Source of the DNA: a virus
Taxonomy: Duplodnaviria > Caudoviricetes
Reading direction: 5' to 3' (one strand)
Virus record (IMG/VR): IMGVR_UViG_3300036985_002412
Location: 1-59,039 of that record
DNA: 59,039 bases
Shown piece by piece: positions 1,513 to 50,569 of the stretch (position 1 is its first letter; each line of letters opens with the position of its first letter). The position numbers and the translations under genes were made by a program. The notes below the pieces were generated by a model. The model made no database searches. It worked only from the letters and a program-made list of their open reading frames with translations, and was not told the DNA's origin.

Positions 1513-1767
1513 ATGACAGAACAGCAAATACAAACTAAAATTAAAAAGAAACTCCAGGAGCGAGGTTGGTTTGTAACCAAACTAATTAAAACCTCCACAA
1601 ATGGCATTCCAGACCTTTTAGCAATCAAATACGGCAAGGCTATGTTTATAGAAGTCAAACGAGAAAACGGCAAACTCGAACCCTTACAACAGACGCGACT
1701 CGAGGAACTAACCCAAGCTGGAGCAATTGTTAAAGTCTGGAGCGATTATGAAGTTGACTTTAAATAA
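1513..1767 (+). CDS. VRR-NUC domain nuclease
   Basis: E..IQ, GIPDLL, FIEVK and Q motifs of the PD-(D/E)xK VRR-NUC family. Confidence 0.85.
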   Translation: MTEQQIQTKIKKKLQERGWFVTKLIKTSTNGIPDLLAIKYGKAMFIEVKRENGKLEPLQQTRLEELTQAGAIVKVWSDYEVDFK

Positions 1768-1892
1768 CGTTTTGCAACTACACGTCTGTTGCGTAAAAAC
1801 ACAAAATTATCTTTCAGTTTAACACGGAATTGAAAGGTACAAAACAAATATTAAATTAATCACAATGTAGCAATAGCGTGTAATTGCTGTTA
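1765..1892. repeat. attC-like hairpin A1
   Basis: TAACgttttGCAACTACACGtCTGTTGC ... GCAATAGCGTGTAATTGCtGTTA. Confidence 0.85.
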
Positions 1893-1907
1893 TAACTCGT
1901 TTTTCTT

Positions 1908-2165
1908 ATGAAAACATTATTAATTACTACAATTTTAATTCATTTATTTTTCACAATAATATCATTTGTGATAAATTACAAAAAAGCAACAGAGCCCTAT
2001 TATGTAAAAGATGCTCTGTATGATTTAGGACTTTGTTTAATTCCAGCTGTAAATATTGCGTATGTGTTTTTAACTTTTTATGAAAGTTATTTAGAAAAGC
2101 ACTTTAATAAAATAACTTTCAATTTTAAAAAATGGTCATCTTTTATGGATAAGCGTTTAAAATGA
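1908..2165 (+). CDS. small membrane protein (cassette cargo)
   Basis: Two hydrophobic segments; segment ends GTTATAACTCGTTTT / AAAATGAGTTATAAC. Confidence 0.7.
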   Translation: MKTLLITTILIHLFFTIISFVINYKKATEPYYVKDALYDLGLCLIPAVNIAYVFLTFYESYLEKHFNKITFNFKKWSSFMDKRLK

Positions 2166-2169
2166 GTTA

Positions 2170-2298
2170 TAACGTTAAACGGCTTTGTGATGTTGCCGAA
2201 AATACACACACTAACTTTAAATTAAAAACTAAACAATGAAAACACAAAATGACAATTCAGTTAAGCCAGAAGTAGGCAATAGCACAAAACCGCTGTTA
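2170..2298. repeat. attC-like hairpin A2
   Basis: TAACgttaaaCGGCTTTGTGATGTTGCC ... GGCAATAGCACAAAACCGctGTTA. Confidence 0.85.
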
Positions 2299-2679
2299 TC
2301 TTCTCGGCTTTTAAAATTCCGAGCTTTTTCAAATGAAACAAAAAAAATGATGGATTGGGACTTTATAAGGTCAGTAAATAATCTAACTAAATTAATATCA
2401 CTAAACCACGTTGATGTTTCTGAATTTATAGGATTGCACGACAAAAATGGTAAAGAAATATACGAAGGAGATATTCTTTGTGATTACAGACTTGATGGTA
2501 CTTATCGGCTGTTTAAAATTTTCAGAGGAAAAGGCGGTTTTGTTTTTAATACCCACCAAGACGATTTTAAAAAACCTATTGAGCAAATTCTATTTACTGA
2601 AAGTTGTTCAGATATGCAAAATGCTGGTTTTTTAGAAACTTGTGAAATAGAAGGTAATATTTGGACGTACGTTTGGTAA
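2236..2679 (+). CDS. YopX family protein (cassette cargo; start inside hairpin loop)
   Basis: KFRAF, GLHDKNGKEIYEGDIL and EIEGNI motifs typical of YopX. Confidence 0.85.
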   Translation: MKTQNDNSVKPEVGNSTKPLLSSRLLKFRAFSNETKKMMDWDFIRSVNNLTKLISLNHVDVSEFIGLHDKNGKEIYEGDILCDYRLDGTYRLFKIFRGKGGFVFNTHQDDFKKPIEQILFTESCSDMQNAGFLETCEIEGNIWTYVW

Positions 2680-2688
2680 GCTGGAAGA

Positions 2689-2815
2689 TAACGTTTCTCG
2701 GCTTTGCTTTGTTGCGGAAAAGTAAGCCAAAATTATCGATTAAAAAACAATATTAACAAACACAAACCGAACATTGAATTATGCCCAAAACCGCAATAGA
2801 GCAAAACCGATGTTA
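2689..2815. repeat. attC-like hairpin A3
   Basis: TAACgtttcTCGGCTTTGCTTTGTTGCGG ... CCGCAATAGAGCAAAACCGAtGTTA. Confidence 0.85.
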
Positions 2816-2830
2816 TAAGTAGCTTTTATT

Positions 2831-3322
2831 ATGGACCAAATTAAACAATTAAAAGATTATTGTGATGAAATTTCACTTGATGATTTACGATTTGTCAAAG
2901 TAAGACAAAAAATAGAAAAAATGCACGAACAAAACAATATAACAATTATTGATTTTATAAAGCAAAAAGAATATGATTTATCTGTTCGTGCAAAAAATGT
3001 ATTAAAATACGCTTCACATTTATATACTTATATGAATGAACTTTCGGTTATTAAATTAGTAAAAATTAGAACTGTTGGTTTAAAAAGCGTAAAAGAAATT
3101 ATACACGTTTACCCTAATTTAGAAAATGAAGTTGGGCATTTAACGAGTATTACAATAAGAGAACATTTAAACAAAGAAGTATTAGCATTTGTTGAATTTG
3201 TATGCTCATCTAAAAATCAAATAGGTTATCACGAAGAAATGAAAAAGTGGTATATTTATGGTAAAGGGTTATGGGTAGATAGTGAACAATTATTTTGGTA
3301 TTTTAACCGCAATGTTGAGTAA
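2831..3322 (+). CDS. protein with RNA polymerase alpha-CTD-like domain (cassette cargo)
   Basis: LSVRAKNVL...LVKIRTVGLKSVKEI resembles the alphaCTD consensus LSVRSxNCL...LLKIxNxGxKSLxEI. Confidence 0.7.
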   Translation: MDQIKQLKDYCDEISLDDLRFVKVRQKIEKMHEQNNITIIDFIKQKEYDLSVRAKNVLKYASHLYTYMNELSVIKLVKIRTVGLKSVKEIIHVYPNLENEVGHLTSITIREHLNKEVLAFVEFVCSSKNQIGYHEEMKKWYIYGKGLWVDSEQLFWYFNRNVE

Positions 3323-3367
3323 AGTTACTTATAACTCCAAAATTCACGCTATAAAAGTATTACAATT

Positions 3368-3550
3368 ATGCAATTATACACTAAAACAAAGGTTATAAGG
3401 ATTTCAGAAACACAATTAAAAACACTTCAAAAAATGAAGTCTTATAATGTTGATGTTGGTAATTTCATTCGTGAAGCAATACAAGAGAAAATTAAACGTG
3501 AGTACAAAGAATTAATATTAAAACATAAAAAATCGGAATGTCCGTTTTAA
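3368..3550 (+). CDS. small ribbon-helix-helix-like DNA-binding protein
   Basis: TKVIRIS beta-strand followed by two helices (FIREAIQEKI). Confidence 0.6.
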   Translation: MQLYTKTKVIRISETQLKTLQKMKSYNVDVGNFIREAIQEKIKREYKELILKHKKSECPF

Positions 3551-3579
3551 TTTTATAACAAATAAAGTATAATTTTGTT

Positions 3580-3608
3580 ACAAAACAACTTTTTTTCGTT
3601 ATATTTGT
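3580..3608 (+). promoter_or_regulatory. ACAAAA-N11-CGTTATA phage promoter overlapping a host-type TATATTTG box
   Basis: Same motif and spacing at 6610, 13771 and 16523. Confidence 0.6.
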
Positions 3609-5034: not shown

Positions 5035-5121
5035 AATCGGTTAATGTAATTGGATATAAATCCAACTTGGGAAACATCCGCTTTTATAGTGGGAATAGAG
5101 GTTCAAATCCTCTACCGATTA
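5035..5121 (+). tRNA. tRNA-like element, atypical or pseudo
   Basis: Acceptor stem AATCGGT/ACCGATT; T-arm AGAGG-TTCAAAT-CCTCT; anticodon-like stem around TTTTATA; D-region enlarged by an extra hairpin. Confidence 0.5.
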
Positions 5122-42882: not shown

Positions 42883-43446
42883 ATGGTAAATTATATTCAA
42901 ACAATAAGAAACCTTGCAATAGTTATATTAATCGGAATAGGTATTTGGTTTTACAAAGATTGGCAATTTCAAAAGTCAGAAAATATTCGCCAGACTGAAA
43001 ATATGCGACAAGTTAGAATAGCTGATAGTTTACGATTTTCAAGTCAAATAGTCAATTCTAACGAACTAAAAGATTATTTGCAATATCAGAACTCGGATTT
43101 ACTTAATAATCTCTCAAAAGAGGGTATAAAAACAAATAGGGTAAAAGAAATTGTAAGCACTAATTATGTATATCGAGATACTACTTATACAGAACACAAA
43201 GAAAAAAAATTTACTGATAGCACTAAATGTTTAACAATAAAAGGAACTATAAATCCCAATGGAACTGTTTCAATTACTGATAGAAAATTTACTAATAAAA
43301 CAGATGCTGTTGCTTTCTGGGAAAGAAAACAATGGAGTTTTTTAGGAATTAAATCAAGGTTTTTAGGCAAAAAACAAATGAGTGCAAAAGTGTATAATGA
43401 ATGTGGTGAAAGTCAAATAATTAAGATAGAAAAAAAAGAAAATTAA
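42883..43446 (+). CDS. putative spanin (Rz-like)
   Basis: N-terminal TM anchor directly after the endolysin. Confidence 0.5.
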   Translation: MVNYIQTIRNLAIVILIGIGIWFYKDWQFQKSENIRQTENMRQVRIADSLRFSSQIVNSNELKDYLQYQNSDLLNNLSKEGIKTNRVKEIVSTNYVYRDTTYTEHKEKKFTDSTKCLTIKGTINPNGTVSITDRKFTNKTDAVAFWERKQWSFLGIKSRFLGKKQMSAKVYNECGESQIIKIEKKEN

Positions 43447-43463
43447 AAATATTTTAAAAAAAA

Positions 43464-43570
43464 TTTGCATTATATAAAAAAAGTTTTGTAAGTTTGTACC
43501 CAGCAAGTAGGACAGCTATAAGAAATCAATTTATCCAATCGTTTGAGAAGTCCTACTCTCTTTCGGTTGG
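43464..43570 (+). promoter_or_regulatory. TTTG / TAAGTTTG promoter with pseudoknot-like leader, upstream of cassette array 2
   Basis: -33 TTTG at 43464, -7 box at 43489; AGTAGGAC is complementary to GTCCTACT in the loop of the CCAATCG/CGGTTGG hairpin. Confidence 0.65.
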
Positions 43571-43604
43571 TTTTTTATTTAAAATTAAAATTACAAATGT
43601 ACAC

Positions 43605-43731
43605 TAACGTTTTGCAGCTAATCGACAGGTTGGGATTAAATAGTACAAACTTTAAATAACAGATAAAATGAGTAAAGAAAACGAAAACTTAAATGAAACA
43701 GAAAACTCGGCATTGAATATAGGTGCTGTTA
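43605..43731. repeat. attC-like hairpin B1 (degenerate)
   Basis: TAACgttttGCAGCTA ... TAGGTGCtGTTA; upper stem pairs poorly. Confidence 0.65.
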
Positions 43732-43955
43732 GCGGTTCGTTGCTTTCATTCGAGGAAATTATGAATGAGGCAAAAAGAGTAAAGGAAAATGTCAAAGCAT
43801 TCCCATTTCACGATGTATCATTTCAGTATGGTGCAGAATGGTCAAGAGATATTTTGATTGAAGAAATTAAACGTAGGCAAGAATTGATAATTTCAGAACC
43901 TGATGGAATTGTTCGAGAAACGATGATTGCTAATTTGTTGGTTGGTCTGCAATGA
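43668..43955 (+). CDS. hypothetical cassette protein
   Basis: Starts in the hairpin loop; segment ends GTTAGCGGTTCGTTGC / GCAATGACCGCTAAC. Confidence 0.7.
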   Translation: MSKENENLNETENSALNIGAVSGSLLSFEEIMNEAKRVKENVKAFPFHDVSFQYGAEWSRDILIEEIKRRQELIISEPDGIVRETMIANLLVGLQ

Positions 43956-43959
43956 CCGC

Positions 43960-44083
43960 TAACGTTTCGCGGCTTTGTGCAGGCGGGAAAATAAAACCTA
44001 ATAATTGAATTAAACACTAATAATAAAAATATACCAAATGACTGAATTAAAGACTAATGCCCGCTTGCTCAAAACCGCTGTTA
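43960..44083. repeat. attC-like hairpin B2
   Basis: TAACgtttcGCGGCTTTGTGCAGGCGGG ... CCCGCTTGCTCAAAACCGCtGTTA. Confidence 0.9.
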
Positions 44084-44841
44084 TGTGTAGGGCGGTTGAT
44101 AATTTAGAGTTGCTTAAAACGCAAGCTGATGAAAGTGTTGATTTAATTTACTGCGACATTCTTTATGGAACAGGTAGAAATTTCGGTGATTACCAAGATT
44201 TAAAACCGAATAGAAGCGAAATAGAAGCACATTATGAACCACGATTAAGAGAAATGCACCGAGTATTAAAAAGCACAGGGAGTATTTATTTACAAATGGA
44301 TTATAGAATAGTGCATTGGATTAGAATTTTGATGGATGATATATTTAATTATAAAAATTACATTCAATCTATTTATTGGAAATATAATGCAGGAGGGAAA
44401 CATAAAGATAAATTTAAAACTGTTACTGATGAAATTTTATTTTATTCAAAAACAGAAAACAAGTGTTTTTATCCTGAAAGGGTTATGATACCTCATCATC
44501 CTGATACATATAGACGAATAAAAGGATATGCGAATGCTGGAATAACCATAAATATAAATGGAAAACAGCGTGAAAATTTATGGGATTTTAATGCTGTAAA
44601 AAAAGGCAATTATACTAAAATCAATGCCGAATATGTTGATTATTCAACTCAAAAGCCAAAAGCATTGATTGAAACAATAATTAAGGCAAGTTCAAACGAA
44701 GGAGATACCGTTGCCGATTATTATTTAGGTTCAGGAACAACCGCAGTAGTATGTAAAGAATTGAACCGAAATTTTATTGGTTGCGACATTAATCCAAAGG
44801 CTATTGAAATTACAAATGCTCGTTTAGATGCAGTTTCGTAG
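44038..44841 (+). CDS. N6/N4 DNA methyltransferase (cassette cargo)
   Basis: VDLIYCDILY (variant DPPY), YSTQKP and DYYLGSGTT motifs. Confidence 0.85.
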   Translation: MTELKTNARLLKTAVMCRAVDNLELLKTQADESVDLIYCDILYGTGRNFGDYQDLKPNRSEIEAHYEPRLREMHRVLKSTGSIYLQMDYRIVHWIRILMDDIFNYKNYIQSIYWKYNAGGKHKDKFKTVTDEILFYSKTENKCFYPERVMIPHHPDTYRRIKGYANAGITININGKQRENLWDFNAVKKGNYTKINAEYVDYSTQKPKALIETIIKASSNEGDTVADYYLGSGTTAVVCKELNRNFIGCDINPKAIEITNARLDAVS

Positions 44842-44850
44842 CCTTGCACA

Positions 44851-44977
44851 TAACGGTTGCGGCTTGTATCGTCGTTGCGGACTTCGTAACTACAAAATTT
44901 CATCTTAAAAATAAATATAATGCGAAACGAAAATATGATTGAACCACAAAATCCGCAATGCGTACAAGCCGTTGTTA
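44851..44977. repeat. attC-like hairpin B3
   Basis: TAACggttgCGGCTTGTAtCGtCGTTGCGGA ... TCCGCAATGCGTACAAGCCGttGTTA, with two extrahelical T. Confidence 0.9.
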
Positions 44978-46371
44978 CTGGCTGTTTCTCTCGTGTAGTA
45001 GATACTGGTTCAGATTTTAGCGGAGTTGGGGCATTTGATCAGGCACTTGAAAGATTAGGAATTAAACAAAATAAAAAGTTTGCTTGTGATATGGATAAAT
45101 ATGCAAGACAGACTTATATCTACAATTTTGGAGAACCTGATTATTATCCTGAAAATGTTTATGATCGTAAAATACCAAAAGAAAGTTTAGATATTTATAT
45201 GACTTCGCCTCCTTGCCAAAGTTTCTCACTTGCTGGAAAACGCAAAGGCGAAGATTCTAAAAATGGAGTTTTGTTTTATAATTCACACGAATTTATTGTA
45301 AAAAACAATCCTCGTTATTTCATTTTTGAAAATGTAAAAGGATTACTTTCTGATGATAACGGAAAAACGTTTCAAAGATGGATTGATTATTTAGGAGGTA
45401 AATCAGTAAATGGAAATCCTGTAATATTCCCTCACGAAAACGCAACACCGTATCACGTTTATTATCAGGTTATGAATGCTAAACATTACGGAGTTCCTCA
45501 AAACCGTGAAAGGATTTTCATTATAGGGATTCGTGATGATGTAGATAATACTTTTACTTTTCCAAAACCATTTCATTTAATTAAAAGATTGAAAGATGTT
45601 TTAGAAAGTGAAGTTGATGAAAAATATTTTTTGAGCGATACAATGCTTACTTGGATTGATAAACATAGAGAAAAAAGAAGTAGTTCAGGAAAATATCCAT
45701 TTACAGAAGAAGATGAGTATAGCGGTTGCATTACAGCACGATATAATAAAATGGGTGCAGAAGATATATTTATTGGAGCAATACGAGGTCGAAATCCACA
45801 AAATCCATTAAGTAGAGTTTCAGGATTGCCAACTGAACAAATGCTTGAGATAAACGAAAACGGAACTTCAAACGCATTAACAACGGTTCAAAAAGATAAT
45901 GTGGTTATAATTCCTGCTAATAACTCAAAAGGCTATGATATTGCAGAAGAAGAAGAAGATTCTATAAATTTTTCAAATCCAAATTCAGAAACTAGACGTG
46001 GTAGAGTTGGCAAAGGAGTAGCACAAACATTAGATACGAGTTGTAATCAGGGAGTTTTAGTAAAAAATGACGCTTATATTTTAGGATATACAAGGGATAA
46101 AAAAGGAAAAGTTACAAAAAGAAATCCTTTAAATCATTCAAATACAATTCATACTTCAACTGGAAGCGGAGGAAATACAGACCAATTCGCTATTTGTAAC
46201 CAAAGAATCCGTCGATTAACCCCAAAAGAATGCTTTGCTTTAATGGACTTCAACGAAGATTTCAAATGGGATGTTTCCGACAGTCAAGCCTATAAACAAG
46301 CAGGAAATAGTATTGTTGTAGCTTGTTTAGTTGAGATTATAAAACGTCTTGATTTACGTAAACCGAAATAG
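44920..46371 (+). CDS. C5 cytosine DNA methyltransferase (cassette cargo)
   Basis: FSGVG, SPPCQSFS, FENVKG, QNRER, RRLTP and QAGNS motifs. Confidence 0.95.
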   Translation: MRNENMIEPQNPQCVQAVVTGCFSRVVDTGSDFSGVGAFDQALERLGIKQNKKFACDMDKYARQTYIYNFGEPDYYPENVYDRKIPKESLDIYMTSPPCQSFSLAGKRKGEDSKNGVLFYNSHEFIVKNNPRYFIFENVKGLLSDDNGKTFQRWIDYLGGKSVNGNPVIFPHENATPYHVYYQVMNAKHYGVPQNRERIFIIGIRDDVDNTFTFPKPFHLIKRLKDVLESEVDEKYFLSDTMLTWIDKHREKRSSSGKYPFTEEDEYSGCITARYNKMGAEDIFIGAIRGRNPQNPLSRVSGLPTEQMLEINENGTSNALTTVQKDNVVIIPANNSKGYDIAEEEEDSINFSNPNSETRRGRVGKGVAQTLDTSCNQGVLVKNDAYILGYTRDKKGKVTKRNPLNHSNTIHTSTGSGGNTDQFAICNQRIRRLTPKECFALMDFNEDFKWDVSDSQAYKQAGNSIVVACLVEIIKRLDLRKPK

Positions 46372-46375
46372 CCAG

Positions 46376-46500
46376 TAACGTTCCCTCGCTTTGTGATGTT
46401 GCAAAGTTCGGAACTGCATATTTTCCGCTACAAATAAACGTGATGCGAACCGTAAACGTCAATTTACTACATAATTTGCAATAGCACAAAACGAGTGTTG
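46376..46500. repeat. attC-like hairpin B4
   Basis: TAACgttccCTCGCTTTGTGATGTTGCAAA ... TTTGCAATAGCACAAAACGAGtGTTG. Confidence 0.9.
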
Positions 46501-46599
46501 GCAGTAGTTTTTTTGATGTTAGGAAAATTTTACTAACTATTTAATGTCTAAAGGTGTCGAATTCGACAAGTTTAGGAAAACTTTACTAAAAATAATATT

Positions 46600-46878
46600 A
46601 TGGCTAAAAATTGGACAACCGAAGAAGAAGAAATTATTAAACAAGAGGTTTTAAAAAACCCTAATAATTTAAGAGAAGCATTTTTTATTGCTTCATTGAA
46701 AACTGGAAGAACTGCTACATCTGTTTGCACCCGATATTACGGAGCGATGAATGAAGAAAAAGAAACCAAAGACGAGCAAATAAAGAAATTATCAATAGAA
46801 ATTATAAAACTTTATGACTTGAATTTAGAGCTAAAACAACAACTTGAAGATGCAACAAAAGCTAAATTTATTAATTGA
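46600..46878 (+). CDS. Myb/SANT-like DNA-binding protein (cassette cargo)
   Basis: WTTEEEEII...GRT..SV..RY. Confidence 0.6.
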   Translation: MAKNWTTEEEEIIKQEVLKNPNNLREAFFIASLKTGRTATSVCTRYYGAMNEEKETKDEQIKKLSIEIIKLYDLNLELKQQLEDATKAKFIN

Positions 46879-47308
46879 TAAGAAATTTAATTATAAGGAT
46901 AAGATTATCAGTATAACTAAATGGAAAAAAGTAGGAGTTACTTATGTTGTTTTTACAGATAGGCAAACTTATAATTTCTTTGAAAATGAAATAGATTTAT
47001 TTATTGAGGAACTTCTTCCGGTAAGAGTAAAACTAAAAGAAGGGGTTTTAGAAAAAAGACAATTAGAGTTAAAAAATGTATCAATACAAGTAAAAAAAGA
47101 CGAACTCAACACTAATAAAATGGAAGAAAACGAAAAAAATATTGTACCAATACAAGAAAATGATTTGAGTGTAATTCTTTTAGATACTATTCAAAAAGTG
47201 CAAAAAGACAAAACTTACATTAATCAAGCCAATGCAATTTGCAATGTAGTTTCTCAAATGATTAACATAAAAAAACTCGAATTACAATTGGCACGCAATG
47301 TTCGGTAA
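46844..47308 (+). CDS. hypothetical protein (second gene of cassette B4)
   Basis: 154-aa ORF ending just inside the cassette end. Confidence 0.7.
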   Translation: MKMQQKLNLLIDKKFNYKDKIISITKWKKVGVTYVVFTDRQTYNFFENEIDLFIEELLPVRVKLKEGVLEKRQLELKNVSIQVKKDELNTNKMEENEKNIVPIQENDLSVILLDTIQKVQKDKTYINQANAICNVVSQMINIKKLELQLARNVR

Positions 47309-47317
47309 AATTACTGC

Positions 47318-47442
47318 CAACGGTTCTCGGCTTTGCGATGGTGGGGTTTCAAGGCACAAATGTTCAACCCACAACTAATGTTTAATAGAATTACAAATGA
47401 TGAATTTACAACTTCCTCCCCACTATTGCAAAACCGATGTTA
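47318..47442. repeat. attC-like hairpin B5
   Basis: CAACggttcTCGGCTTTGCGATGGTGGGG ... CCCCACTATTGCAAAACCGAtGTTA. Confidence 0.9.
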
Positions 47443-48179
47443 TGCGTAGTGTTTTAGTCCACGCTGATTGCTTTGATGTGTTTCCATACATTGCTGATAA
47501 AAGCGTAAATCTTATTTTATGCGATTTGCCTTATGGTACTACCGCTTGTAAATGGGATAGTATTTTGCCTTTTGAAAAACTTTGGAATGAATACGAAAGA
47601 ATAATAACCGATAATGGTGCAATAGTGCTAACGGCATCACAACCATTTACGAGTGCTTTGGTAATGAGTAATCCAAAAATGTTTAAACACGAATGGATTT
47701 GGGAAAAACAAAAGGCAGCAAATTTTATGAATATGAAAACTGCTCCTGCAAAATACCACGAAAACATATTGGTATTTGCAAAAAACACTCCAACTTATAA
47801 TCCTATAATGTGGCAAATAGAAGAAAGCAAACGAGATAAAAGAAAAACTGTAAATAACCCAATTACTAATAAAGATTGTCATTTAGGGGAAATTGTAAGA
47901 ACAAGAAAAGAAGATGATGGAAGTAGATACCCAAAAAGTATTTTAAAAATTGACAAAAGCATAAATAAAAATTTGCACCCAACAGCAAAACCTTTGGAAC
48001 TTATGCAATACTTAATCAAAACATATTCAAATGAAGATGATGTAGTAATGGATAATTGTATGGGTAGCAACACAACAGGTTTAGCTTGTAAAGAGTTAAA
48101 TCGTCAATACATAGGAATTGAAAAAGAAAAAGCGTATTATGATATTTCAGTCAAACGAGTTACGGAGTGTCTGTTCTAA
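47397..48179 (+). CDS. N6/N4 DNA methyltransferase (cassette cargo)
   Basis: ILCDLPYG, HPTAKP and DNCMGSNTTG motifs. Confidence 0.9.
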   Translation: MMNLQLPPHYCKTDVMRSVLVHADCFDVFPYIADKSVNLILCDLPYGTTACKWDSILPFEKLWNEYERIITDNGAIVLTASQPFTSALVMSNPKMFKHEWIWEKQKAANFMNMKTAPAKYHENILVFAKNTPTYNPIMWQIEESKRDKRKTVNNPITNKDCHLGEIVRTRKEDDGSRYPKSILKIDKSINKNLHPTAKPLELMQYLIKTYSNEDDVVMDNCMGSNTTGLACKELNRQYIGIEKEKAYYDISVKRVTECLF

Positions 48180-48188
48180 CATTACGCA

Positions 48189-48314
48189 TAACGTTATCTC
48201 GCTTGGCGAGGTTGGGAAAAATAAGCCCAAATCATCTTATTTAAAAACTATAAAACCAAGTACAAAATGAACAATAAATTAAGCCAAATACCCAATCTTG
48301 CCAAACGAGTGTTA
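48189..48314. repeat. attC-like hairpin B6
   Basis: TAACgttatCTCGCTTGGCGAGGTTGGG ... CCCAATCTTGCCAAACGAGtGTTA. Confidence 0.9.
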
Positions 48315-49268
48315 GTGGCTGATGTGGGATTGAAAGAAAGATGTCTTATTTCATTCTCTGGTGGCGAAACTTCCGCTTATATGTTATGGTGGTTATTAAC
48401 TCATAAATCTGATGTTTATGATTTTGTAATAATATTTGCTAATACTGGGCAAGAAAATGAGCAAACTTTAGAATTTGTTAGAAATTGTGAAACTCATTTT
48501 GGTTGTAAAATTGTATGGGTTGAAGCTGTGCCAAGAATGTTTTTTCAAGGCAAAGTAAATAAAGTAGAAGATTGGTTAAACAATATCCAAATTATAAAAT
48601 GGATTGGAAAAAAACTTGGGACAAAACACAGAGTTGTAAATTTTGAAACAGCTAATCGTGATGGAAAAGTTTACGAGACTGTAATTGCGAGATACGGAAT
48701 ACCAAATGCGGCTGGAATATTTTGCACAAGAGAATTGAAATTAAGACCTATAACTTCATATTTGAGAAGTATCGGATGGAAAAAAGGAACGTACCAATCA
48801 GCAATAGGAATTAGAGCTGATGAATTTGACAGAATGAATAAAGATAGAGTTAAAGAAAAACTTTATTATCCTTTGATAAAAGACCAACCAATGACAAAAC
48901 CTAAAATTAATTTTTGGTGGAAATTACAGCCTTTTAGATTAGAATTGAAAGGTTATCAAGGAAATTGTAAATGGTGCTTTAAAAAATCAGATAATAAACT
49001 TTATCAATTAGCACAAGAAACGCCTGAAATATTTGAATTTCCTGACAGAATGGAACAGATTTATGGAAATTGGATTCCACCCGATAGATTAGCTGAATTG
49101 ATTGAAAAAGGAAAAGAAATACCAACAAATATTAAGTTTTTTAGAAACCATAAATCAGCAAAAGATATTTTAGAAAACTCAAAAACATTTGATAAAAACG
49201 TGAAAGATGATAGTGATGTTTATGATGATACAGAGAGTTGCGATATATACGCAGAATGTGGTTCTTAA
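48267..49268 (+). CDS. PAPS reductase-like / adenine nucleotide alpha-hydrolase protein (cassette cargo)
   Basis: SFSGGETS PP-loop, FANTGQE, CTRELK, GIRADE and GNCKWCFKK motifs. Confidence 0.8.
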   Translation: MNNKLSQIPNLAKRVLVADVGLKERCLISFSGGETSAYMLWWLLTHKSDVYDFVIIFANTGQENEQTLEFVRNCETHFGCKIVWVEAVPRMFFQGKVNKVEDWLNNIQIIKWIGKKLGTKHRVVNFETANRDGKVYETVIARYGIPNAAGIFCTRELKLRPITSYLRSIGWKKGTYQSAIGIRADEFDRMNKDRVKEKLYYPLIKDQPMTKPKINFWWKLQPFRLELKGYQGNCKWCFKKSDNKLYQLAQETPEIFEFPDRMEQIYGNWIPPDRLAELIEKGKEIPTNIKFFRNHKSAKDILENSKTFDKNVKDDSDVYDDTESCDIYAECGS

Positions 49269-49278
49269 ACGTAAACGA

Positions 49279-49344
49279 ACATTTGCCACTAACTACTATA
49301 TGTAAAAAAAATGTGCGAACACTAATAAACTTAATGCCTAACAA
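49279..49344. other. candidate attI-like primary recombination site
   Basis: Last cassette end ACATTTGCCACTAAC is not followed by a hairpin; TAAC ends 51 bp before the integrase ATG. Confidence 0.55.
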
Positions 49345-50151
49345 ATGGAAATTCCTAAGTACCTTGTTTTATATCGGAAAGAATTAACCTTAAAAGGATA
49401 TTCTGAAAATACTATTAAAAATTATGTTTCACAGGTAGATTTATTTTTAAGAGGACATAATCAGTTGTTTACAGAACCATCTAAAATAAATGAAGAAGCA
49501 ATAAAAACATGGCTACTTCAATTTAAAACTAAAAATTCAATGTGTCATAGCATTTCAGCTTTGAAATTATTTTATAAGATGGTTATAAAGCAACCTATGA
49601 AATTTCGTTACATTGAATATCCTCGTTCTGAAAAGAAACTGCCTAAAATTATTGAAAAGGAATTTTTGTTAATCCAATTGAATAAAATCAAAAATAGCAA
49701 ACACAAAGCACTTCTTACAATGACTTATTCTACAGGAATGAGAGTTTCAGAAGTTATTAATCTTTTGATAGCTGACATAGATAGTAAGCGCATGATTATT
49801 TTCATTAGAAATTCAAAAGGCAATAAAGATAGAATTGTTCCATTAAGCCAAAAAGTTTTAGAATTATTACGTATTTATTATTCTGAATATAAACCTAAAG
49901 AATATTTATTTAATGGTCAAGGAGATAATATTCAATATTCCGAAACAAGTTGTAATCAATTGGTAAAAAAATACATTGGAAAAGAATATCATATGCATTT
50001 GCTTAGACACTCAAATGCTACAGCACTTCTCGAAGCAGGAACAGACCTTAGATATATTCAAAAACACCTTGGACATTCAAACGTTAAAACTACAGAAATT
50101 TACTGCCATGTAAGTACAAATATGCTTTCAAAAATGGCATTACCAATTTAA
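49345..50151 (+). CDS. tyrosine recombinase with N-terminal SAM-like domain (candidate cassette integrase)
   Basis: Catalytic R (GMRVSE), K (SKGNKDR), HxxR (HLLRH), H (LGH) and Y (TTEIY) are intact; YSENTIKNY N-domain. Confidence 0.95.
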   Translation: MEIPKYLVLYRKELTLKGYSENTIKNYVSQVDLFLRGHNQLFTEPSKINEEAIKTWLLQFKTKNSMCHSISALKLFYKMVIKQPMKFRYIEYPRSEKKLPKIIEKEFLLIQLNKIKNSKHKALLTMTYSTGMRVSEVINLLIADIDSKRMIIFIRNSKGNKDRIVPLSQKVLELLRIYYSEYKPKEYLFNGQGDNIQYSETSCNQLVKKYIGKEYHMHLLRHSNATALLEAGTDLRYIQKHLGHSNVKTTEIYCHVSTNMLSKMALPI

Positions 50152-50161
50152 CACATAAACC

Positions 50162-50569
50162 ATGAGCCAGCTAAAAAAACTAAATAATTGGATTGTAGCT
50201 TATGAAACAGCAAATGATATTTTTCCTGATTCTAAGGCAATAAAATTCAAAATCAAGGAACTACTGAAAGAGGAGGTTATTGATAAAAAATCAGGATCTA
50301 AAAAGATTTACTTTCGGGATTGCAAATGGTCAGATTATAATATTCTTAGGAAAGAATTAGCATCTGATCAAAATTTTGTTAAGCAATATTCCGGAGTTGA
50401 TTTGAAGGCTTATATTGAAGATGCTATGGCATGGTCAGAAAAAGGGAATACCACTACAGAAAATGGATGGAAGTTAACTTTGAAAAATTGGATGCGTAAA
50501 TCTAAATTAGAAGGTAGATTAATAATGAAACCAAAAGCAGATATTAAGGATGCTTTTACAAATCAATAA
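50162..50569 (+). CDS. putative replication protein (initiator/loader-like)
   Basis: W..T..NW motif; directly before the helicase. Confidence 0.45.
   Translation: MSQLKKLNNWIVAYETANDIFPDSKAIKFKIKELLKEEVIDKKSGSKKIYFRDCKWSDYNILRKELASDQNFVKQYSGVDLKAYIEDAMAWSEKGNTTTENGWKLTLKNWMRKSKLEGRLIMKPKADIKDAFTNQ

Follow-up and report, generated by a model that had tools for sequence, protein, structure and literature searches.

A probable phage-borne counterpart of the integron, in which the recombination hairpin precedes the cassette gene and may supply its start codon

Integrons consist of a tyrosine recombinase beside a primary site (attI) and a one-way array of promoterless cassettes, between which imperfect AAC...GTT hairpins (attC) are located. 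The ends of the cassettes are complementary like those of a circle, and the hairpins show a marked bias to fold from one strand. Sedentary chromosomal integrons with uniform attC sites are especially close to the system described here. All these properties of integrons recur in the virus genome IMGVR_UViG_3300036985_002412 (Duplodnaviria; Caudoviricetes), whose complete stretch of 59,039 nt was analyzed and is referred to as the window. It carries two arrays of hairpin-bounded gene cassettes, array A (1765-3559) and array B (43605-49293), and the latter is followed by an attI-like site and, directly behind this, by the gene of a Xer-like tyrosine recombinase. It is probable (roughly 0.7) that array B and this integrase represent a phage-borne, working counterpart of the integron with array A as an integrase-less satellite, and that in its cassettes the site comes first and start codons are provided by the hairpin loops. 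If the window is read from the - strand, the order of integrase, attI, cassettes and distal hairpin is the classical one.

Several features differ from those of integrons. The phage recombinase lacks the insertion typical of IntI and obtains its best scores with models of XerA, XerC and XerD, and it is encoded co-directionally with and downstream of the open reading frames (ORFs) of the cassettes, each gene being led by its hairpin. Strand choice in attC sites relies on extrahelical bases, which are not clearly used by the phage hairpins; here, conserved G.T pairs and a bulge of 4-5 nt on one side mark the strand. Moreover, the loops of the phage hairpins hold start codons, a promoter-like site is located at the far end of the array, and the right end of the hairpin, GTTA, is a second breakpoint.

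With Xer/dif systems and dif modules, the phage arrays have in common a recombinase of the Xer type and short inverted arms at the borders of the gene units. Such dif-module (pdif) units are reportedly known from Acinetobacter plasmids, and the hairpin arm ...ACGCATAA presumably resembles the XerC arm of dif. However, the arms of the phage sites are separated by about 118 nt of hairpin instead of a central region of 6 bp, and sites of about 125 nt, in place of 28-bp dif-type sites, do not indicate a dimer resolvase. The phage system additionally possesses its own recombinase, ordered one-way arrays and a fixed primary site. With regard to translation, short ORFs of attI1 (ORF-11 and ORF-18) are said to act as translation aids in integrons, and attC stems reportedly affect the translation of the next cassette. 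The phage site would likewise affect the translation of the cassette behind it, but by encoding the start codon together with 14-26 residues at the N-terminus of the cassette protein, which goes beyond coupling or blocking of ribosomes.

Clusters of attC sites without an integrase (CALINs) were described in phages and are enriched in orphan DNA methylases; one cluster occurs in Polaribacter phage P12002L, which has a flavobacterial host (Qi et al. 2023, PMC9892861). These cassettes are also phage-borne, bounded by hairpins and rich in methylases, but their sites are classical attC predictions and were tested with IntI1, and neither a Xer-like partner nor an adjoining attI or start codons in loops are named in the sections consulted. 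In the whole genome of P12002L, no match to the hairpin model of this study occurred at E up to 1, so the cluster most probably belongs to a different or far-diverged site family. A structured element in front of consecutive genes is also known as the DUF1874 motif; Weinberg et al. 2017 (PMC5737381) suggested that it might represent an unusual attC, with no integrase where one would be expected, at the 5' end. It differs by its multistem structure, and no family of Rfam matched the hairpins at the gathering score over the whole window or even at E up to 1 over 43400-49400. In the article texts consulted, no Xer-like integrase with its own attI-like site, no hairpin-first cassettes and no start codons within the site were found described.

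The contig is complete according to CheckV, and nearly all of its long ORFs are encoded on the + strand. Its nearest named DNA belongs to phages of Flavobacterium psychrophilum, the similarity being confined to a single hairpin of 134 nt. Nine hairpins of about 125 nt with the ends TAAC...GTTA were identified, all of them on the + strand, three in array A (A1-A3) and six in array B (B1-B6). A covariance model seeded with these nine copies recovered exactly the same hairpins, and none besides, when the whole window was searched. On the + strand, TAAC and the bulge of 4-5 nt lead into the first arm of the stem, which measures about 20 bp and contains fixed mismatches; the loop that follows is A-rich and about 70 nt long, and after the returning arm a single unpaired T precedes GTTA. 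The distance from the C to the G is 118-123 nt. In the stem, 86.3% of the cells were paired in comparison to 36-50% if the partner column was slid; changes on both sides occurred in 15 of 22 stem pairs, and none of 500 shuffles reached the observed covariation score. The structure is therefore supported by covariation, whereas the folding energy of single copies is weak evidence alone (z-scores of the DNA folds from +1.86 to -2.60; -1.89 or lower in four of nine hairpins).

In the alignment of 148 hairpins of this family, 408 stem cells were G.T and only 11 were A.C, and two G.T pairs are nearly invariant (147 and 140 of 148 hairpins), which argues for the + strand as the folding strand. The alignment was fitted to the model and leans to the G.T pairs of the seed, but the bias is too large to be explained by that alone. 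Since the + strand also carries the coding sequences, an identical hairpin forms in the mRNA.

For comparison, 80 IMG/VR loci encoding relatives of the integrase (45-95% identity; loci are designated by L and a number) were searched with a threshold of E 0.01 or better. Altogether, 151 hairpins were obtained, 145 from 38 of these 80 loci and six from Flavobacterium phage 2A. All 145 hairpins of the integrase loci are located on the strand of the integrase and upstream of it, and all 160 model matches in the window, phage 2A and the 80 loci have one orientation. Eight of 147 hairpins were short variants, with a distance from C to G of 80-86 nt in seven and 67 nt in one, the usual span being 109-126 nt. 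The six hairpins of phage 2A (KU599887.1, L001 5617-8513), a cultured phage of F. psychrophilum, are located among small unannotated or hypothetical genes, and no integrase is annotated within the 12-kb stretch that was read.

The recombinase was compared with the models of NCBIfam. The best scores were obtained for XerA (180.8 bits; cut-off 220), XerD (158.1; cut-off 329.6) and XerC (155.3; cut-off 335.15), all of them below the respective cut-off, and the XerA model is an archaeal one. The integron integrase model TIGR02249 gave a match in two pieces with 146 bits versus a cut-off of 265. In comparison to IntIA of Vibrio cholerae (PDB 2a3v), residues 174-210 of the recombinase (37 residues) face residues 176-259 of the chain (84 residues), so that the protein is about 47 residues short at this position and the IntI-specific segment is absent. 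Judged from its sequence, the enzyme is Xer-like and a member of neither the IntI nor the XerA, XerC or XerD families; PHROGs labels the gene as 'integrase'. It would probably catalyze recombination of single-stranded substrates.

In the 110 nt inspected ahead of the integrase, a conserved block was found which consists of TAAC, TACTATATGTA, an A-rich stretch, ...ACACTAATAAA... and the ATG. The conservation starts exactly at TAAC, which is located 52-54 nt ahead of the integrase ATG in 37 of 42 phage loci, and the DNA to the left of it is unrelated between loci. In eight of eleven comparisons, the homology to relatives on the integrase side starts at 49289-49290. The junction of array B is therefore the TAAC at 49290-49293 and not that at 49339-49342, which the end coordinate of the original prediction had suggested. 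Thus, the junction is located to within TAAC, and by analogy with integrons the exact cut would probably be AA|C. As in integrons, a primary site lies beside the integrase, but the geometry differs since the integrase is co-directional with the cassettes. The same module of integrase and attI-like site also occurs in genome assemblies of Flavobacterium and Bacteroidales; in the Flavobacterium loci (L092-L094) no protein of the window besides the integrase had a match. In five contigs of Bacteroidota genomes (L101, L103, L104, L111 and L116), integrase relatives with 44-45% identity were accompanied by matches of the hairpin model which are located behind the gene on the other strand (six of them in L104), a different layout; these contigs do not have the TAAC-TACTATATG block ahead of the integrase.

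The ends of the cassettes were compared by aligning the 10 nt to the right of GTTA with the complement of the last 10 nt ahead of the following TAAC, which is part either of the subsequent hairpin or of the attI-like site. On average, 6.83 of 10 positions were complementary, and 57 of 127 pairs reached a score of 9, in contrast to 2.95 for the two flanks of the same hairpin and 3.16 for random pairs. In the window, the scores were 9, 6, 9, 6, 8, 9, 9, 9 and 8, and for all nine hairpins a gain of 5.3-10.1 kcal/mol was predicted if the end of the own cassette served as the left flank. The rare GTTG to the right of B4 pairs with the rare CAAC to the left of B5, and throughout the family a C at -3 coincides with a G at +3 in the hairpin preceding it in all three cases, but with one at +3 of the own hairpin in only one of five. 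As a rule, just one position departs from complementarity, with a T opposite a G at position 10: a T is present at -10 to the left of TAAC in 141 of 148 hairpins and a G at +10 to the right of GTTA in 122 of 147, yielding one fixed T.G, and in some cassettes the stop codon of the ORF before begins with this T.

At the sequence level, the ends of each unit are thus complementary as expected of an integrated circle, and this complementarity alone does not assign a hairpin to an ORF. A cassette consists, in this order, of the C, a hairpin core of about 118 nt, GTTA, the 10-nt flank, an optional leader, one or more ORFs, the complement of the flank and TAA. After excision as a circle, pairing between the two flanks would add about 14 bp to the hairpin stem. 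Cassettes would have entered at the attI-like TAAC or, in the case of array A, at a secondary TAAC.

Such a secondary site can be recognized by comparison. Array A is located at the stop codon of a gene with a VRR_NUC Pfam match, and 80 relatives of this VRR-NUC gene were compared for empty and filled sites. Five of them (L223, L226, L227, L239 and L251) are empty and read ...TTTATAAC|AAATAAAG... with nothing between, while six filled relatives that were inspected contain different inserts, each of which starts immediately after TAAC; in four of these six (L221, L222, L224 and L228), a hairpin was placed at the insert junction. The insert of the window spans 1768 to 3558, and its final 223 nt constitute a unit without hairpin that ends with TATAA|C. 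Array A thus runs past a bare TAAC at 3332-3335 to 3559. The unit without hairpin (3336-3558) has TAA|C at both sides and encodes a 60-aa protein (ORF 3368-3550) with a weak match to DUF6290 and a match to phrog_25647 at 1e-34; together with array A, it is missing from the five relatives with an empty site. Being located 11 kb from the integrase across the ends of the record and 46 kb within it, array A has the form of a CALIN (at least two sites and no integrase nearby), but in form only, as it is not established that its sites are substrates of IntI.

Both arrays open with a whole hairpin and close with a bare TAAC, as originally predicted apart from the corrected ends. A whole cassette of 1,027 nt with 92.9% identity is shared by L019 (6448-7477) and L041 (8919-9948); it begins with TAAC and the hairpin and ends with TAA|C, and is followed by another hairpin in L019 and by the attI-like site in L041. 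In a protein family occurring in L002, L013 and L018, the shared DNA likewise begins at TAAC, comprises the hairpin and reaches into the ORF. Hairpin cores from different loci were at least 80% identical in 41 pairs, of which 13 had the right 10-nt flank in common and only one the left flank, flanks being counted as shared at a score of 0.8 or more. Because of the array ends, the empty and filled sites, the cassette of L019 and L041 and the preferential sharing of the right flank, it is concluded that the site precedes the ORF. The claim that the unit is a hairpin plus its downstream ORF with a crossover at the left TAAC was thereby substantiated at the attI junction, at secondary sites and by an entire cassette, and the ORFs are indeed antisense to the classical direction from attI to attC and parallel with the integrase. 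In none of the homologous-ORF comparisons made did an ORF retain its downstream hairpin while the upstream one varied.

From the position of the attI-like site, new cassettes may enter next to the integrase, as had been proposed. The order of the cassettes in different arrays is uninformative with respect to the order of entry, as it can be read either way. The window and L002, whose integrase genes are 91% identical in DNA, have no cassette in common; L013 and L018 share the unit nearest to attI and differ in the remainder, and the last unit of L041 is four units away from attI in L019. When the ends of blastn matches of at least 250 nt were inspected, 2,293 of 2,320 starts were far from hairpins and fell in core phage genes.

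In integrons, each ORF is followed by its attC and the promoter Pc is located at the integrase end, whereas here the hairpin lies before the ORF and the sole promoter-like motif is found at the far end of array B. This motif, TTG-spacer-TAnnTTTG at 43466-43496 just after the last ORF of the late region, is the only one on the + strand between 42056 and 50474 and agrees with the predicted host-type promoter at the integrase-distal end; none occurs inside array B on this strand. In the relative L002, a like-spaced TTTG...TAGATTTG is present at the same place. Ahead of array A no such motif was detected, and one is located just behind it at 3570-3607. A scan for sigma-70-type promoters yielded 27 sites in comparison to 36.9 in shuffles, a consensus which is not meaningful for this type of host. 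Between the promoter-like site and B1 (43497-43585), a stem with a long loop and a T run was noticed (RNA fold -16 kcal/mol, z -1.05), and a similar stem with a T run occurs at the same place in L002. The distal hairpin B1, which the original prediction had called the most decayed, has the weakest fold of all nine (-4.5 kcal/mol, z +1.86). Transcription would start at the putative phage promoter upstream of the array and read through the cassettes to the integrase.

Six ORFs (starting at 2236, 43668, 44038, 44920, 47397 and 48267) open at an ATG of the A-rich loop, which is the first one in frame and precedes the G of GTT by 42-60 nt, and they read through the open right arm; the leader peptides quoted in the original prediction are correct. 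Two frames relative to GTT are used, one by four of these ORFs and the other by those of A2 and B6. A1, A3 and B4 have no in-frame start in the loop, and their ORFs begin 19, 19 and 103 nt past the G. The function of every site as a translation initiation module, which had been proposed, hence applies to part of the sites: the start in the loop is needed for two cassettes, and three of the nine hairpins of the window supply none.

One of the two cassettes encodes the C5 methylase behind B3. In 13 of 14 loci with relatives of this methylase, no hairpin was found ahead of the gene, the exception being L172, which is the L005 contig; in L178, one hairpin is located behind the gene. Eleven of these 13 relatives start with M-x(1-4) just before the motif (T/V/I)GSD[FC]SGVG (ATG 2-5 codons before it), and the remaining two are open at the motif without an ATG. 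In both cassette copies, those of the window and L005, the flank GTTACTGGCTGTTT is fused in frame where the native start would be, no ATG, GTG or TTG occurs between GTTA and the motif, and the frame is open up to an in-frame ATG in two unrelated hairpins. In the second case, the YopX domain of ORF 2236 comprises residues 27-105 (profile positions 1-97) with no start codon nearby, and the next in-frame ATG, 52 nt past the G, would remove 11 residues. Since both bodies have lost their native ATG, the start in the loop is needed, and loop starts appear to be real for at least these two cassettes. Bacteroidota initiate translation at A-rich unstructured leaders and not at Shine-Dalgarno sites. The A-rich loop would serve as translation start in about half of the cassettes, and loop, right arm and flank together would provide the ATG and the first 14-26 codons.

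Several observations weigh against the reading of the arrays as a site-first counterpart of the integron with loop starts. GTTA is a second sharp breakpoint which is not predicted by a model with a single crossover, and the right flank is not shared in 28 of the 41 pairs with similar cores. In 42 of the 80 integrase loci no hairpin was detected at E 0.01 or better, many of them having little upstream DNA. The covariance model was seeded with the window's own copies, so that its E-values are rough and the alignment of 148 rows is model-fitted, and the conservation of G.T pairs suits a role of the RNA as well as one of single-stranded DNA. The first ATG is located beyond the hairpin in three of nine hairpins of the window and in 61 of 128 units of the family; for the first ORF of these 128 units, the in-frame ATG that comes first is located in the loop (57), 5-40 nt past the G (44), further away (17), in the right arm (5), in the left arm (3) or is absent (2), a census which left out 19 units, wrongly counted A1 among the two without ATG and misplaced the G by 3 nt where GTTGTT occurs, as in B3. 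Finally, four of the six loop starts of the window have a plausible alternative downstream, namely the ATG within GTTATG in B2 and B5, a TTG in B6 and an ATG 33 nt beyond the G in B1.

The breakpoint at GTTA leads to the strongest alternative. The body of the C5 methylase gene has 92% DNA identity to L005 from the (T)GTTA of the right arm to the TAAC(GT) of the next hairpin, and the hairpin cores on both sides are unrelated. Conversely, the core of B3 is 97-98% identical in six phage records of F. psychrophilum (five phages: 2A, FPSV-D35, D17, D15 and F7) without a C5 methylase at this position; in 2A, a frame of 26 codons is followed by unrelated DNA. Furthermore, about 25 of 104 matches overlapping a hairpin (counted by eye) cover the hairpin alone, from -3 to +3..+5. 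The assumption that a hairpin and its downstream ORF travel together was consequently not reliable. As the C5 body swaps heads and the core of B3 occurs without the methylase, the match between frame and ORF, which had been taken as a sign of linkage, reflects selection. For relatives of the phosphoadenosine phosphosulfate (PAPS) reductase no hairpin was found in 36 of 37 loci. The second N6/N4 methylase (B5) has about 52% protein identity to that of L054, and the DNA alignment of the hairpins is too noisy for a decision.

These data could be explained if DNA was exchanged at either border of the hairpin, namely at TAA|C and, as a mirror image, at GTTA, by a Xer-like system without the IntI insertion. 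The hairpin would then be a detachable head with start codon and leader peptide, and heads would be reshuffled among bodies without a start, either because both strands are used or because the extruded hairpin could serve as the overlap in a full exchange of two strands. The two heads which each supply an in-frame ATG to the same methylase body fit this idea. On the other hand, the asymmetry of 13 to 1 in the sharing of flanks indicates that the two sides are not equivalent, the uniform orientation of all 160 model matches speaks against free use of both strands, and in all four further pairs with similar cores that were aligned, the identity continues past GTTA, flank and leader and stops at the ATG of unrelated ORFs. 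The latter pattern looks rather like illegitimate gene replacement filtered by selection. Such detachable heads are therefore possible, but doubtful. If they existed, phages could capture genes stripped of their start and re-equip them by a swap of heads, which would be a natural shuffling of translation starts and N-termini, and a Xer-like enzyme would work without the IntI insertion that is held essential for the recombination of hairpins. The cassette behind the hairpin at 6620-6743 of L009 (from about 6790) begins with MKIGTIGHVDHGKTTL, the G1 motif of an EF-Tu-like GTPase, and a nearly identical hairpin and leader precede an unrelated ORF in L018.

The loop ATGs might also result from mere extension of the ORFs, if translation began at or after GTT and the hairpin was only a recombination site or an RNA stem in the 5' untranslated region. 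The consensus of the right arm in the window is free of stops in all three frames, so that open frames come easily. The ATG within GTTATG would yield the typical N-terminus of a methylase in B2 (ATGs at -42 and +3 relative to the G) and B5 (-42, -39 and +3), the TTG of B6 occupies the position of the ATG in about 30 relatives of the PAPS reductase, and the units with a first ATG after the hairpin are numerous, as mentioned above. This explanation is nevertheless unlikely. Besides the bodies of the C5 methylase and the YopX protein that lack a start, an open loop ATG was found in the frame of the ORF in 49 of 102 units (48%), but in only 9 of 204 other frames (4.4%), the frame being defined by the longest ORF behind the hairpin, counted from the G. 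Of the 57 units with a loop start, 23 lack a further in-frame ATG between G-5 and G+90, and nine lack ATG, GTG and TTG alike in this interval. Moreover, at each of the 12 positions before the 57 loop ATGs, A is more frequent than any other base (46-86%), similar to the phage's long genes (39-64%); the corresponding values for all ATGs of the window are 35-47%. It is likely that the loop ATGs of such cassettes are used in translation.

It is very improbable that the polarity is the classical one, with a unit of ORF and downstream hairpin, a crossover at G|TT in the right arm and an integrase located at the far end by chance. The hairpin reads TAAC...GTTA on both strands, so that either polarity can be drawn; the ORFs stop 0-25 nt ahead of the next TAAC like those of classical cassettes, GTTA is a real boundary of homology, and L003 and L037 share 133 nt of upstream DNA plus the hairpin, this similarity stopping at GTTA. 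Against this stand the whole hairpin at the start and the bare TAAC at the end of both arrays, the conserved attI-like DNA that begins at TAAC, the filled secondary sites starting with a hairpin and ending without one, the block of L019 and L041, whose end at TAA|C adjoins a hairpin in L019 and attI in L041, and the left flank being shared by a single pair versus 13 for the right one.

A lysogeny integrase, with the conserved TAAC region as its attP and with hairpins that are unrelated repeats (terminators, repetitive extragenic palindromic (REP)-like elements or IS200/IS605-type palindromes), would be in line with the PHROGs name, with the usual position of attP sites adjoining int and with the hairpins of phage 2A without an integrase in the stretch read, but has hardly any chance of being correct in view of the complementary cassette ends, insertion and deletion variants joined at TAAC, the lack of any matching Rfam family, a scan for terminator-like sites (3 in the region versus 3.5 in shuffles) and contigs of 180-362 kb (L043, L045, L057 and L068) in which hairpins immediately precede the integrase, because integration via attP would separate the hairpins from the integrase. 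Elements of the IS200/IS605 or REP/RAYT type were rejected as candidates, as the partner is a tyrosine recombinase and the flanks of the same hairpin are no more complementary than expected by chance (2.95 versus 3.16 of 10); no search for HUH genes was made.

The coordinates of both arrays are compiled in Table 1.

Table 1. Features of the two hairpin arrays and of the integrase region in the window (hairpin coordinates run from the T of TAAC to the last base of GTTA or GTTG; CM, covariance model)
Feature	Position	Strand	Evidence
Hairpin A1, first unit of array A; ORF 1908-2165 starts 19 nt past G	1765..1892	+	CM 98.3 bits
Hairpin A2; loop ATG 2236 opens YopX-family ORF 2236-2679	2170..2298	+	CM 114.7 bits
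Hairpin A3; loop ATG out of frame, ORF 2831-3322 starts 19 nt past G	2689..2815	+	CM 126.8 bits
End of array A: bare TAAC 3332-3335, unit without hairpin (ORF 3368-3550), backbone junction TAAC 3556-3559	3332..3559	+	empty-site relatives
Promoter-like site of Bacteroidota type (TTG, spacer, TAAGTTTG), integrase-distal end of array B	43466..43496	+	motif scan
Hairpin B1, weakest fold; loop ATG 43668 opens 95-aa ORF 43668-43955	43605..43731	+	CM 94.2 bits
Hairpin B2; loop ATG 44038 opens N6/N4 DNA methylase ORF 44038-44841	43960..44083	+	CM 114.1 bits; Pfam N6_N4_Mtase 1.4e-47
Hairpin B3; loop ATGs 44920 and 44935 are the only possible starts of the C5 methylase	44851..44977	+	CM 92.7 bits
C5 cytosine methylase body, GTTA to next TAAC, no own start codon before motif I	44974..46379	+	Pfam DNA_methylase 1.1e-63
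Hairpin B4, right end GTTG, no loop start; ORFs 46600-46878 and ~46844-47308	46376..46500	+	CM 105.3 bits
Hairpin B5, left end CAAC; loop ATG 47397 opens N6/N4 methylase ORF 47397-48179	47318..47442	+	CM 103.4 bits; Pfam N6_N4_Mtase 3.3e-32
Hairpin B6; loop ATG 48267 opens PAPS-reductase-like ORF 48267-49268	48189..48314	+	CM 113.5 bits; PHROG 424 3.6e-48
attI-like site: junction TAAC 49290-49293 and conserved spacer to integrase ATG	49290..49344	+	conservation across integrase loci
Xer-like tyrosine recombinase, 268 aa, without IntI-specific insertion	49345..50151	+	Pfam Phage_integrase 3.4e-35

The cassettes of array A encode an 85-aa ORF, the YopX-family protein and a protein with a weak match to the C-terminal domain of the RNA polymerase alpha subunit. 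Array B comprises the 95-aa ORF, an N6/N4 methylase, the C5 methylase, a unit with two ORFs, a second N6/N4 methylase and the PAPS-reductase-like protein. In the leader behind B4, two direct repeats of 17 nt (46520-46536 and 46573-46589) flank a palindrome of 15 nt (46554-46568) ahead of a small Myb-like ORF and look like an operator carried within the cassette. Elsewhere in the window, a tRNA gene was identified at 5035-5121 (Rfam, 32 bits). Of the sampled words from 43400-50200, 9-21% were present in 23 other public runs, mostly metagenomes from freshwater, wastewater, sediment or estuaries.

Integron integrases are thought to be derived from Xer recombinases by the gain of an insertion for folded single strands (PMC4792948, PMC8138268). 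In the phages, a short Xer-like enzyme without this insertion is tied to arrays of the same logic in 38 of the 80 related loci, which makes the question directly testable. For the calling of genes, bodies without a start would be annotated as truncated or with a wrong start. The arrays show phages stocking and exchanging genes for counter-defence, DNA methylases being present in three of the six units of array B, and the reversed polarity lends the recombination site a second job as translation start, which suits Bacteroidota.

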